IMG/VR virus record: IMGVR_UViG_2718218104_000011
Source: a virus
Lineage: Duplodnaviria > Heunggongvirae > Uroviricota > Caudoviricetes
DNA length: 26,877 bases
Reading direction: 5' to 3' (one strand)
In this document: in pieces, positions 3,905 through 21,971 of the stretch
Layout: each line of letters begins with the position of its first letter
Numbering within the stretch: the stretch's first letter is position 1
Notes under the pieces: model-generated
The model's input: the letters and a program-made list of their open reading frames with translations, nothing else
Told to the model about the DNA's origin: nothing
Database searches by the model: none
Made by a program: the position numbers and the translations under genes

Positions 3905-4066
3905 GTGAAGCTGTCGGGTTACTTCATCCCGCCAATATTTTCCCACGTCCCGTCAGCACGCAGGATTTGCAGCGGTCTTACCACACACTGTATCTGCTTT
4001 TTATCTGCATCCTGAACCGCCCCGGAAATCCTGGAGACTAAACTCCCTGAGAAAGAGGTAAACAGG

Positions 4067-4393
4067 ATGACTAAAAATACTCGTTTTTCCCCCGAAGTCC
4101 GTCAGCGGGCGATTCGTATGGTTCTGGAAAGTCAGGATGAATATGACTCACAGTGGGCGGCAATTTGTTCCATTGCCCCAAAGATTGGCTGTACGCCGGA
4201 GACTCTGCGTGTCTGGGTTCGCCAGCATGAGCGGGATACCGGGGGCGGTGATGGTGGGCTCACCAGCGCTGAACGTCAGCGTCTGAAAGAGCTGGAACGT
4301 GAAAATCGTGAACTGCGCCGCAGTAACGATATCCTTCGCCAGGCTTCCGCTTATTTTGCGAAGGCGGAGTTCGACCGCCTCTGGAAAAAATGA
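4067..4393 (+). CDS. IS629 OrfA (transposase N-terminal HTH component), 108 aa
   Basis: Translation [19 protein letters not shown]... with leucine-zipper-like C-terminus typical of IS3-family OrfA. An A6 run at the orfA/orfB overlap is the expected frameshift window. Confidence 0.85.
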
Positions 4394-5280
4394 TGCCACT
4401 GCTGGATAAGCTGCGTGAGCAGTACGGGGTCGGACCGGTATGCAGCGAACTGCATATTGCCCCGTCAACGTATTACCATTGTCAGCAACAGCGACATCAT
4501 CCGGATAAACGCAGTGCCCGTGCGCAGCACGACGACTGGCTGAAGAGAGAGATACAGCGCGTATACGATGAAAATCATCAGGTGTACGGTGTGCGTAAAG
4601 TCTGGCGTCAGTTGTTACGGGAAGGAATCAGGGTGGCCAGATGTACAGTGGCACGTCTCATGGCGGTTATGGGACTTGCCGGTGTTCTCCGGGGTAAAAA
4701 GGTCCGTACGACCATCAGCCGGAAAGCCGTTGCCGCAGGCGACCGCGTAAACCGTCAGTTCGTGGCAGAACGACCTGACCAGCTGTGGGTGGCTGATTTT
4801 ACTTACGTCAGCACATGGCAGGGCTTCGTCTATGTGGCGTTTATCATTGATGTGTTTGCCGGATACATCGTGGGGTGGCGGGTCTCATCGTCTATGGAAA
4901 CGACATTCGTGCTGGATGCGCTGGAGCAGGCGTTGTGGGCCCGTCGTCCGTCTGGCACCATCCATCACAGCGATAAAGGCTCTCAGTATGTGTCACTGGC
5001 CTATACGGAGCGACTAAAAGAAGCCGGATTACTGGCATCAACAGGGAGTACAGGCGACTCGTATGACAACGCGATGGCTGAGAGCATCAATGGTCTTTAC
5101 AAAGCGGAGGTAATACACCGTAAGAGCTGGAAAAACCGTGCAGAAGTGGAACTGGCCACACTAACGTGGGTGGACTGGTATAACAATCGACGATTGCTGG
5201 GAAGGCTGGGCCATACTCCTCCGGCAGAAGCAGAAAAAGCTTATTATGCTTCCATCGGAAACGATGATCTGGCAGCCTGA
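4390..5280 (+). CDS. IS629 OrfB (transposase catalytic DDE component), 296 aa
   Basis: Translation contains the IS3-family integrase-core region (WVADFTYV...HSDKGSQY...). Overlaps orfA in the -1 frame. Confidence 0.85.
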
Positions 5281-5502
5281 GTTCACAGATAAAACACTCT
5301 CCAGGAAACCCGGGGCGGTTCATCCAGTATCACCACCTGTGTGATTACCCTGTCCTGCTCCGGAATAATGCCATTCTCATCTGACTCCAGAATGTCTGCC
5401 GGTCCCAGTCGCAATTGTGCTGTAAGTGACCGTCCGTTTTCACAGTCATCATGCTTTCCGCAACCGCACAGACTCTGCATAAGCTTTCTCAAAATATTCA
5501 TG

Positions 5503-6756
5503 TCATTCTCCAGTTCTGCCTGTATCACTGCCCACTTCATCCAGTCCCTTAACATCCTGCCATGGCCCGTCACCAAATCTGACCTGCAAATGCTGAAACA
5601 TCCCCTGAACCTGTGTGGCATCTTTGGGGTCAAGAAAGGTCAGTCCGGTGATGAGCGCACCATCTGTACCCGGGAACCAGCCATAGCTGTTTGTCTCAAT
5701 AATGCTCGCCGGCCCCAGACGAAAACGGATTTGTGTCTCCCCCGGGTCGCCCTTCGCCCCCTGAGGTCCGGTAGCCCCCACCGGGCCAGCCGCACCTGTT
5801 TCCCCTTTCGGTCCCTGCGGTCCTGCCGGACCTGTTGCCCCGGTATCTCCCTTTGGCCCCTGTGGACCTGCCGGACCTGTATCTCCTCCCGGTCCCCGTT
5901 CACCGGTTGCCCCTGCCGGACCGGTGTCTCCACGCTCTCCTTTATCTCCCTTCGGCCCCTGAGGACCCGCGGGACCCGGTTCCCCCTTTGGTCCGGGAGG
6001 CCCCACCACGGTGGGAATTCTGTTTACGGCGTCTTCCGCCGCTATTCTGCTTTGTTCCGCTGACTGTGCGCTTTCTGCTGATTCCCGGGCTTTTTCTGTT
6101 GCGGTCGTTGCATCCCTGGCTGCATTACCGGCTGCACTTTCTGCCGTCTTTTTTGACAACTCGGCATCTGTTGCACTTTGTAATGACTCACTGGCTTTTT
6201 GAGCGGCCTCAGAGGCTGAGGACGAGGACGCTTCCTCTGACTTCTTTGCAGAGGCTGCACTTTCTGCCGCCTGCCGGGCTGACTCCGATGCATCCTCTGC
6301 TGAAGTATCAGCATTTGCGGCGCTCGCTTCCGCCTTACTGGCTGATATGCCGGCATTCCTCGCGGACGTCTCTGCTTCTCCGGCATTCTTCTTCGCCTCC
6401 TCTGCGTGACGCGCTGCTTCTTCCACCATCTGTTCAAAACGACGCAGTGCCTCCGGACGGGCATCATCCTCCGTCATGGCACCGAGAAAATCATTCAGCG
6501 TACCCGGTTGAGAATCTTCATACACGGAGATGGTCCCGGCATGTGATGGCGGGAATCCCTCCACCAACAGAGTGACGCTGTACTGACCATACTCGACGTC
6601 CATGCTGTAACGCCCTGCCTCATCCGGATTTTCAGAGGCCACCGTGTTCACCACCACCGTGGTGCTGTTACGTCTGGCTTTCAGTTGAATGGTGCAGTTC
6701 TGTATTGGTTTTCCCGCACCATCTTTCAGCACGCCTGATATTTGTACTGCTGCCAT
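5503..6756 (-). CDS. stf: Side tail fibre protein (lambda Stf-like N-terminus, collagen-like Gly-X-Y repeat region)
   Basis: N-terminus [39 protein letters not shown]...[13 protein letters not shown] matches remembered lambda Stf. About 30 consecutive G-X-Y triplets ([28 protein letters not shown]...). The start is taken at the ATG at 6756 rather than the ORF-track 6762. Confidence 0.8.
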
Positions 6757-6815
6757 ACCCACTCCACAAAAAAGCCCGCCTGAACCGGCGGGCTGTCATA
6801 ACGCTGTGTTACTAA

Positions 6816-19313: not shown

Positions 19314-19985
19314 GCCAGCGATGCGCAGTTCATCGCATTGTTGATCGTCGCCAACCAGTACGGCCTTAATCCGTGGACGAAAGAAATTTACGCCTTCCCT
19401 GATAAGCAGAACGGCATCGTTCCGGTGGTGGGCGTTGATGGCTGGTCCCGCATCATCAATGAAAACCAGCAGTTTGATGGCATGGACTTTGAGCAGGACA
19501 ATGAATCCTGTACATGCCGGATTTACCGCAAGGACCGTAATCATCCGATCTGCGTTACCGAATGGATGGATGAATGCCGCCGCGAACCATTCAAAACCCG
19601 CGAAGGCAGAGAAATCACGGGGCCGTGGCAGTCGCATCCCAAACGGATGTTACGGCATAAAGCTATGATTCAGTGTGCCCGTCTGGCCTTCGGATTTGCT
19701 GGTATCTATGACAAGGATGAAGCCGAGCGCATTGTCGAAAATACTGCATACACTGCAGAACGCCAGCCGGAACGCGACATCACTCCGGTTAACGATGAAA
19801 CCATGCAGGAGATTAACACTCTGCTAATCGCCCTGGATAAAACATGGGATGACGACTTATTGCCGCTCTGTTCCCAGATATTTCGCCGCGACATTCGCGC
19901 ATCGTCAGAACTGACACAGGCCGAAGCAGTGAAAGCTCTTGGATTCCTGAAACAGAAAGCCACTGAGCAGAAGGTGGCAGCATGA
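19314..19985 (+). pseudogene. bet: bet (Red-beta single-strand annealing protein), first ~38 codons and promoter missing
   Basis: From 19314 the frame encodes [32 protein letters not shown]... through to the natural stop, matching lambda Bet residues ~39-261. Upstream sequence is the ninE 5' flank and there is no in-frame ATG; the ORF-track start is a TTG. Confidence 0.85.
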
Positions 19986-20204
19986 CACCGGACATTATCC
20001 TGCAGCGTACCGGGATCGACGTGAGAGCTGTCGAACAGGGGGATGATGCATGGCACAAATTACGGCTCGGCGTCATCACCGCTTCAGAAGTTCACAACGT
20101 GATAGCAAAGCCCCGCTCAGGAAAGAAGTGGCCTGACATGAAAATGTCCTACTTCCACACCCTGAACCGCCCCGGGTTTCCTGGAGAGTGTTTTATCTGT
20201 GAAC

Positions 20205-21095
20205 TCAGGCTGCCAGATCATCGTTTCCGATGGAAGCATAATAAGCTTTTTCTGCTTCTGCCGGAGGAGTATGGCCCAGCCTTCCCAGCAATCGTCGATT
20301 GTTATACCAGTCCACCCACGTTAGTGTGGCCAGTTCCACTTCTGCACGGTTTTTCCAGCTCTTACGGTGTATTACCTCCGCTTTGTAAAGACCATTGATG
20401 CTCTCAGCCATCGCGTTGTCATACGAGTCGCCTGTACTCCCTGTTGATGCCAGTAATCCGGCTTCTTTTAGTCGCTCCGTATAGGCCAGTGACACATACT
20501 GAGAGCCTTTATCGCTGTGATGGATGGTGCCAGACGGACGACGGGCCCACAACGCCTGCTCCAGCGCATCCAGCACGAATGTCGTTTCCATAGACGATGA
20601 GACCCGCCACCCCACGATGTATCCGGCAAACACATCAATGATAAACGCCACATAGACGAAGCCCTGCCATGTGCTGACGTAAGTAAAATCAGCCACCCAC
20701 AGCTGGTCAGGTCGTTCTGCCACGAACTGACGGTTTACGCGGTCGCCTGCGGCAACGGCTTTCCGGCTGATGGTCGTACGGACCTTTTTACCCCGGAGAA
20801 CACCGGCAAGTCCCATAACCGCCATGAGACGTGCCACTGTACATCTGGCCACCCTGATTCCTTCCCGTAACAACTGACGCCAGACTTTACGCACACCGTA
20901 CACCTGATGATTTTCATCGTATACGCGCTGTATCTCTCTCTTCAGCCAGTCGTCGTGCTGCGCACGGGCACTGCGTTTATCCGGATGATGTCGCTGTTGC
21001 TGACAATGGTAATACGTTGACGGGGCAATATGCAGTTCGCTGCATACCGGTCCGACCCCGTACTGCTCACGCAGCTTATCCAGCAGTGGCATCAT
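20205..21095 (-). CDS. IS629 OrfB
   Basis: Protein identical to the other two OrfB copies. Confidence 0.85.
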
Positions 21096-21418
21096 TTTTT
21101 CCAGAGGCGGTCGAACTCCGCCTTCGCAAAATAAGCGGAAGCCTGGCGAAGGATATCGTTACTGCGGCGCAGTTCACGATTTTCACGTTCCAGCTCTTTC
21201 AGACGCTGACGTTCAGCGCTGGTGAGCCCACCATCACCGCCCCCGGTATCCCGCTCATGCTGGCGAACCCAGACACGCAGAGTCTCCGGCGTACAGCCAA
21301 TCTTTGGGGCAATGGAACAAATTGCCGCCCACTGTGAGTCATATTCATCCTGACTTTCCAGAACCATACGAATCGCCCGCTGACGGACTTCGGGGGAAAA
21401 ACGAGTATTTTTAGTCAT
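21092..21418 (-). CDS. IS629 OrfA
   Basis: Protein identical to the other two OrfA copies. Confidence 0.85.
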
Positions 21419-21971
21419 CCTGTTTACCTCTTTCTCAGGGAGTTTAGTCTCCAGGATTTCCGGGGCGGTTCACCCTGCTGGCTGAGGTTTGCACCGGTGT
21501 GGCTCCGGAAGTTAATGCTAAGGCGCTGGCCTGGGGAAAACAGTACGAGAACGACGCCAGAACCCTGTTTGAATTCACTTCCGGCGTGAATGTTACTGAA
21601 TCCCCGATCATCTATCGCGACGAAAGTATGCGCACCGCCTGCTCTCCCGATGGTTTATGCAGTGACGGCAACGGCCTTGAGCTGAAATGCCCGTTTACCT
21701 CCCGGGATTTCATGAAGTTCAGGCTCGGTGGTTTCGAGGCCATAAAGTCGGCTTACATGGCCCAGGTGCAGTACAGCATGTGGGTGACGCGAAAAGATGC
21801 CTGGTACTTTGCCAACTATGACCCGCGTATGAAGCGTGAAGGCCTGCATTATGTCGTGGTTGAGCGGGATGAAAAGTACATGGCGGGTTTTGACGAGATG
21901 GTGCCGGAGTTCATCGAAAAAATGGACGAGGCACTGGCTGAAATTGGTTTTGTATTTGGGGAGCAATGGCG

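Follow-up and report, generated by a model that had tools for sequence, protein, structure and literature searches.

Two simple IS629 insertions and an IS629-linked deletion scar in an Sp3/CP-933K-type prophage remnant of Escherichia coli O157:H7 strain 9234

IS629 is an insertion sequence (IS) of the IS3 family, IS51 group, with IS1203 as an isoform, and the IS629 of E. coli O157:H7 Sakai, EDL933, EC4115, and TW14359 is the closest known element to three copies that we analyzed in a 26,877-base stretch of DNA (IMG/VR record IMGVR_UViG_2718218104_000011, hereafter the window). Insertion, excision, and linked deletion by IS629 are established as the chief cause of small structural variation and of prophage immobilization in O157:H7, and are used in strain typing. 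Ooka et al. (Genome Res, 2009) reportedly described IS629-associated ‘small-size structural polymorphisms’ of O157 prophages. IS629 generates 3–4 bp target duplications, which were retained at 21/47 sites, and 62% of its copies lie in prophages (Rump et al., PMC3271280). Adjacent deletions that leave the IS intact are described for IS3 (PMC8860574), and those adjacent to IS629 range from a few nucleotides to >40 kb according to Kusumoto et al. (2011, Nat Commun) as cited in PMC9943667.

The second described system is the Sp3 (Sakai)/CP-933K (EDL933, O-island 36) prophage, the nleB2-nleC-nleH1-nleD effector phage that adjoins the bio operon between ybhB and ybhC. The nleB2 gene has been assigned to O-island 36/CP-933K/Sp3 (PMC7142665), and this prophage keeps exo and bet while gam and cI are absent (PMC8046923). 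The window was identical to a stretch of NZ_CP017446.1 (E. coli O157:H7 strain 9234), the first 25 kb matching as one 100% piece, and it contains a lambdoid prophage with ybhB and ybhC as flanking host genes in the RefSeq annotation. This prophage is a degraded remnant of the Sp3/CP-933K type: integration site and effector cargo are shared with it, as is an IS-less loss of the gam-to-cI/O/P region that spared bet and exo. It differs in being ~15.6 kb shorter, without the portal-to-J genes, and in having IS629 interruptions in exo and in one tail-fibre gene. Taken as a whole, we hold with high confidence that the window carries an Sp3/CP-933K-type remnant in which copies 1 and 3 are simple insertions and copy 2 is the scar of an IS629-linked deletion.

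All three copies are 1310 bp long with 0 mismatches among them, as found by repeat search and direct string comparison, and an exact triplicate of this length makes a chance origin impossible. The first-pass annotation of the window, a model reading made from the sequence alone, had placed two copies in direct and one in inverted orientation, and its coordinates and orientations were exact (Table 1). Over its 1310 bp the element is 100% identical to sequences labelled IS629 in phage entries of GenBank (HQ424691 and AJ304858; the phages include VT2phi_272 and CP-1639). RefSeq labels the product an ‘IS3-like element IS1203 family’ transposase joined by programmed frameshift. The terminal inverted repeats are imperfect and start TGAACCGCCCCGG; comparison of TGAACCGCCCCGGAAATCCTGGAGA with the reverse complement TGAACCGCCCCGGGTTTCCTGGAGA gives 22/25 matching positions between the two ends. 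Both the size and the ends agree with those of the IS3 family (about 1.3 kb, 5'-TG...CA-3'). The orfA and orfB reading frames overlap at 4390-4393 in copy 1, and the ALIL pseudoknot (Rfam RF01497) was recovered at full length in each copy at 121.5 bits (gathering score, 50); each copy is predicted to have a programmed -1 frameshift region stimulated by this RNA structure. By these sequence features, all three elements are intact IS629 of the IS3 family. Scans of the window for tRNAs and Rfam families added nothing outside the ISs. The window copies share with known IS629 the length, the orfA/orfB frameshift with ALIL, the 3-bp duplications, and the preference for prophages, and the element itself shows no differences; only the positions are specific, copies 2 and 3 to a small clade and copy 1 to one strain. 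The IS629 triplet is already known biology in a public annotated genome and ordinary for this element. A literature search by accession returned nothing describing the prophages of strain 9234.

We scored the occupancy of IS629 sites and junctions in 5,426 complete genomes and compared the window with its relatives by block alignment, using ERL04-3476 (locus L003) and strain 1613 as full-length comparison prophages. Sites were covered to at least 80% by the search in 54 genomes for the copy-1 query and 92 for the copy-3 query. Copies 1 and 3 are simple transpositions, each with a 3-bp target duplication. The tail-fibre C-terminal gene that copy 1 splits is 270 bp when intact (WP_001024022.1, strain 2159) and is present as two pseudogene fragments in strain 9234. 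Its empty site, CTGCATCC followed by AGTATC with a single TCC, was found in strains 2159, ERL04-3476, 1613, and F3398, and seven genomes otherwise identical over the region have the site empty. Removal of copy 1 and one TCC left 0 mismatches to strain 2159 over 25,564 bp, making copy 1 the sole difference between 9234 and 2159 at this locus. The exact site was occupied in 1/5,426 genomes (strain 9234), and copy 1 is a strain-specific new insertion. The empty copy-3 site, CCACACCC followed by TGCTGG with a single CCC, was found in ERL04-3476, 1613, F8492, and Z570, and the exact site was occupied in 8/5,426 genomes (9234, 2159, 2149, 1130, 4276, Gim1-1, NE92, and NCCP 13918). A domain search detected the YqaJ domain in the 3' fragment of exo beyond copy 3. 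IS629 moves by copy-out-paste-in; it entered exo in the ancestor of the small clade that these eight complete genomes represent, and the small tail-fibre gene in strain 9234 alone.

Two insertions in other strains were considered as instances of these events and rejected. An IS629 in the tail-fibre C-terminal gene of F3398 lies ~120 bp from the copy-1 site and has a CAG duplication, and TW14359 has one in exo of a different prophage, ~70 bp from the copy-3 site, with an AGA duplication; both are independent events in the same small genes.

The possibility that at least one copy was duplicated or misplaced by assembly has to be weighed for a repeat of this kind. O157:H7 genomes carry >20 identical IS629 copies that are hard for assemblers (PMC3271280), and copy 1 is present in one assembly only. 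Against this, a perfect 3-bp duplication flanks copy 1, its sequence occurring once in four other strains, and no base differs from strain 2159 in the remainder of the 25.6 kb; a misassembly would not yield so precise a duplication. Copies 2 and 3 have identical junctions in eight separately deposited complete assemblies from different sources. The precise duplications and the eight shared assemblies together exclude an assembly artefact, which the first-pass annotation had offered as the way its reading might fail, and we consider it extremely improbable.

That annotation had also taken the identity of the copies and of their encoded protein pairs as a sign of recent transposition. This argument did not hold, because IS629 at eight other sites in seven strains was likewise 1310 bp with 0 mismatches, all eight insertions having 3-bp target duplications; an element identical across strains gives no evidence of local recency. 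What supports recency is presence or absence among otherwise identical genomes. On that basis recent transposition stands for copies 1 and 3, with their duplications and the empty sites in relatives, and fails for copy 2.

Copy 2 is not a simple insertion but an intact IS that marks where an IS629-associated deletion took place. Its two flanks are far apart in ERL04-3476, where the left flank ends at L003 9156 and the right flank starts at 26055, leaving 16,898 bp that the window lacks. In the full-length prophages of ERL04-3476 and 1613 the DNA beyond the left flank is the lom start codon followed by J, and the portal gene precedes the right flank (portal at L003 25025-26149, with the breakpoint at 26055). 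Of the 16,898 bp, 1,313 bp are an IS629 in the tape-measure gene (L003 15676-16985) plus its duplication, and 15,585 bp are phage DNA comprising the portal, the protease/capsid fusion, tail genes, J, and lom codons 1-3. The tape-measure IS629 has the same orientation as copy 2 (+) and is gone from the window. Copy 2 has no target duplication because of this deletion. Both of its junctions occurred in the same 8/5,426 genomes only.

The deletion also reached two neighbouring genes. The native lom start (ATG-CGT-AAA) and its upstream region lay in the deleted DNA, leaving a lom stretch at 6816-7406 (-), from which RefSeq still annotates a 192-amino-acid Ail/Lom protein with a non-canonical internal start. 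With the charged N-terminus of the signal peptide gone, export of this protein would be doubtful. The portal gene was already split into two open reading frames (ORFs) of 336 and 1125 bp in ERL04-3476 (L003 24568-26149), and likewise in 1613, so morphogenesis was probably defective before the 15.6-kb deletion. The net effect is that an already defective prophage was further immobilized while its effector cargo, nleH1, nleC, and nleB2 (1..3742, -), stays intact, with no IS629 insertion.

For the origin of copy 2 we infer, with moderate confidence, an IS-adjacent deletion. The most parsimonious route would be transposase-dependent and possibly IEE-assisted, and it needs at least two events because both flanks of copy 2 differ from the tape-measure site; the iee gene (SpLE1) lies outside the window. 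Either an insertion at one breakpoint would have been followed by a one-sided deletion, or two one-sided deletions would have extended outward from the tape-measure copy. Copy 2 is older than, or contemporaneous with, copy 3. The copy-2 locus resembles the IS629-associated prophage deletions of O157 (Kusumoto et al. 2011 as cited in PMC9943667) in that its 15.6 kb falls within the range reported there, an intact copy without duplication stands at the edge of a multi-kb deletion, and the prophage was further immobilized. It is unlike them in that both flanks differ from the tape-measure site, the sole one at which close relatives are known to carry IS629, and in that the precursor is unsampled.

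The same structure could have come from a RecA-dependent crossover between direct IS629 insertions at lom codon 3 and ~95 nt into the portal gene, with loss of the DNA between them. An intact copy without a duplication and with flanks 16.9 kb apart in intact prophages is what such a crossover would leave, and this prophage has been targeted by IS629 repeatedly, at no fewer than six further positions among other strains, with several of those copies in the same orientation. If so, the type of event that the first-pass annotation predicted has already occurred once at this locus. Two insertions and a crossover make three events on this route, one more than an adjacent deletion needs. The 5,426 complete genomes contain neither of the precursor insertions, and the sole direct copy in the closest relatives is the one in the tape-measure gene, from which neither flank of copy 2 derives. 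We consider two-copy recombination rather unlikely.

Some points weigh against our preference for an adjacent deletion and the history built on it. The intact IS, the missing duplication, and the non-contiguous flanks are marks of an IS-adjacent deletion that are equally expected from recombination between two ISs, and the more specific sign, one junction preserved as an earlier simple insertion, was absent from the 5,426 genomes, none of which had one copy-2 junction and not the other as a deletion precursor would; such an absence from the sample is compatible with the mechanism. Without a sampled intermediate, adjacent deletion and direct-copy recombination both fit the data; microhomology or duplication remnants cannot separate them, because any three bases at the breakpoint fit an original insertion. 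Lastly, we infer the clade membership of the eight genomes from shared insertions and 100% regional identity rather than from a whole-genome tree.

The genes the copies were said to bracket, lom-stf between copies 1 and 2 and terminase, lysis, Q, and nin between copies 2 and 3, were as claimed according to the RefSeq annotation. As RecA-dependent substrates, the copies could support deletion (1 with 2) or inversion (2 with 3, 1 with 3). The first-pass annotation had proposed that recombination could delete or circularize the first segment and invert the second, which is mechanistically possible, but no product was found in the 5,426 complete genomes. A crossover within the IS preserves the junctions between IS and flank, so any derivative would retain the copy-2 right junction, and this junction was confined to the eight genomes, all of which align collinearly with the window over 25 kb on a single strand. 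Window positions 8715-20164 were collinear with L003 26053-37502 at 99.99% identity by block alignment; given this collinearity with the ancestral prophage and the copy-3 duplication still in place, no inversion has occurred. The comparison among strains for inversions and deletions that the annotation suggested therefore gave no recombinant forms, and what it did reveal was the 15,585-bp deletion at copy 2, of which the annotation had made no mention. F8492 and Z570 at first resembled variants starting at the copy-1 boundary and were rejected, since hit merging had joined unrelated insertions of IS629, located in the small terminase gene and the ybhI-ybhH spacer.

A functional arrangement, with copies 1 and 2 and the lom-stf cargo as a composite transposon or copies 2 and 3 as a switch for the Q-lysis-terminase-LpxR block, would suit the geometry of direct copies around 2.1 kb and of perfect inverted 1310-bp repeats around 11.4 kb. 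The outer flanks of copies 1 and 2 are different trinucleotides (TCC at the left of copy 1, ATC at the right of copy 2), where a composite transposon would have a shared duplication, and copy 1 has a duplication of its own. Copy 1 exists in a single genome, and the IS629-lom-stf-IS629 unit was found only in strain 9234 at this locus; no inverted form occurred among the eight genomes with copies 2 and 3. Neither a switch nor a transposon has a plausible selected output in a prophage without immunity, replication, head, and tail genes, and we regard both as very improbable. It is likewise highly doubtful that copies 2 and 3, or 1 and 2, recombine measurably in populations of the clade as a stochastic switch and are not inert debris. 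Were this true, populations would show mixed block orientation, or loss or circularization of lom-stf, and altered expression of LpxR or the lysis genes would be possible.

Elsewhere in O157, IS629 occurs at six or more further positions in this prophage or in the DNA just past its int end. Two of the insertions lie in the tape-measure gene and point in opposite directions; the others are in the small terminase gene, a hypothetical gene close to xis, the tail-fibre C-terminal gene, and, on the host side, the ybhI-ybhH spacer. Exact searches placed five of the copies, which were 1310 bp and identical, with 3-bp duplications; the near-xis copy in strain 1613 is known from annotation only. The prophage region is a regional hot spot for IS629. 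The exo insertion of TW14359 (L008 4574-5883) lies in the exo homologue of a different lambdoid prophage, at ~2.71 Mb in TW14359, EC4115, and SS52; it has the same orientation as copy 3 and is shared by TW14359 and ~80 other O157 genomes. Here a Red exonuclease gene has been inactivated independently and in parallel.

Within 17 kb the locus cleanly illustrates three stages: an insertion confined to one strain, another confined to a clade, and the scar of a deletion. For the small cattle-associated clade of eight genomes listed above, the sites of copies 1 and 3 could be used as lineage markers. No change in virulence cargo is implied, as the three effector genes are untouched.

Table 1 Features of the window and IS629 copies in comparison loci. 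L003 is the ERL04-3476 locus; all other positions without a locus name refer to the window.
Feature	Position	Strand	Remarks
nleH1-1	1-882	-	Type III effector; RefSeq annotation
nleC	1709-2728	-	Type III effector; RefSeq annotation
nleB2	2762-3742	-	Type III effector; RefSeq annotation
Tail-fibre C-terminal-domain gene, split by copy 1	3919-5501	-	Fragments 3919-4017 and 5322-5501
IS629 copy 1	4013-5322	+	In small tail-fibre C-terminal-domain gene; TCC duplication 4010-4012 and 5323-5325
Copy 1 orfA	4067-4393	+	HTH_Tnp_1, 2.4e-12
Copy 1 orfB	4390-5280	+	HTH_21, 3.7e-18; rve DDE core, 9.3e-28
Segment between direct copies 1 and 2		-	lom, tail-fibre N-terminal gene, 5' part of tail-fibre C-terminal gene; annotation
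Tail-fibre N-terminal gene	5503-6756	-	phage_tail_N, Collagen, Phage_fiber_C
lom, 5'-truncated	6816-7394	-	Ail_Lom match from profile position 8
IS629 copy 2	7407-8716	+	Flanks AAC (left) and ATC (right), without target duplication; deletion junction
Copy 2 orfA and orfB	7461-8674	+	Pair identical to copy 1; ORF list and domain search
Portal 5' remnant, ~95 nt	8717-8811	-	Right deletion edge; overlaps 213-bp hypothetical gene 8739-8951
Block between inverted copies 2 and 3	8948-20162	-	Annotation
Terminase large subunit	8948-11050	-	RefSeq annotation
Terminase small subunit	11050-11541	-	RefSeq annotation
Lysis cassette	12216-13532	-	RefSeq annotation
Q	15325-16014	-	RefSeq annotation
LpxR	16489-17448	+	RefSeq annotation
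ninE-G and phosphatase	17660-19284	-	RefSeq annotation
Truncated bet	19314-19985	+	RefSeq annotation
exo, 5' part	19982-20164	+	RefSeq annotation
IS629 copy 3	20163-21472	-	In lambda-type exonuclease gene (exo/YqaJ); CCC duplication 20160-20162 and 21473-21475
Copy 3 orfA and orfB	20205-21418	-	Pair identical to copy 1; ORF list and domain search
ALIL frameshift-stimulating pseudoknot	4348-4464; 7742-7858; 21021-21137	+; +; -	Rfam RF01497
xis	24193-24411	+	Prophage end; RefSeq annotation
int	24389-25459	+	Prophage end; RefSeq annotation
ybhC	25594-26877	+	Host gene; RefSeq annotation
IS629 copies in other strains	L003 15676-16985; L004 15864-17173 and ~39640-40950; L005 8631-9940; L006 26900-28209; L007 4621-5930		

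Other features of the remnant lie apart from the IS629 copies. The truncated bet gene (19285-19985 region) is separated from the start of ninE by a 29-bp spacer with no IS between them; its Pfam RecT match starts at profile position 19, and RefSeq flags the N-terminus as missing. The bet-ninE junction is a second, IS-less deletion by which the gam-to-cI/O/P immunity and replication region was lost. The LpxR gene encodes a lipid A 3'-O-deacylase family protein and, as a moron on the opposite strand, separates Q from the nin genes; a 72-bp fragment of a second antitermination gene adjoins it. Finally, the tail-fibre N-terminal gene is 63 bp (21 codons) shorter, in frame, than its counterpart in ERL04-3476 (L003 7190-8506), the difference lying inside collagen-like Gly-X-Y repeats with six clustered single-nucleotide polymorphisms alongside.

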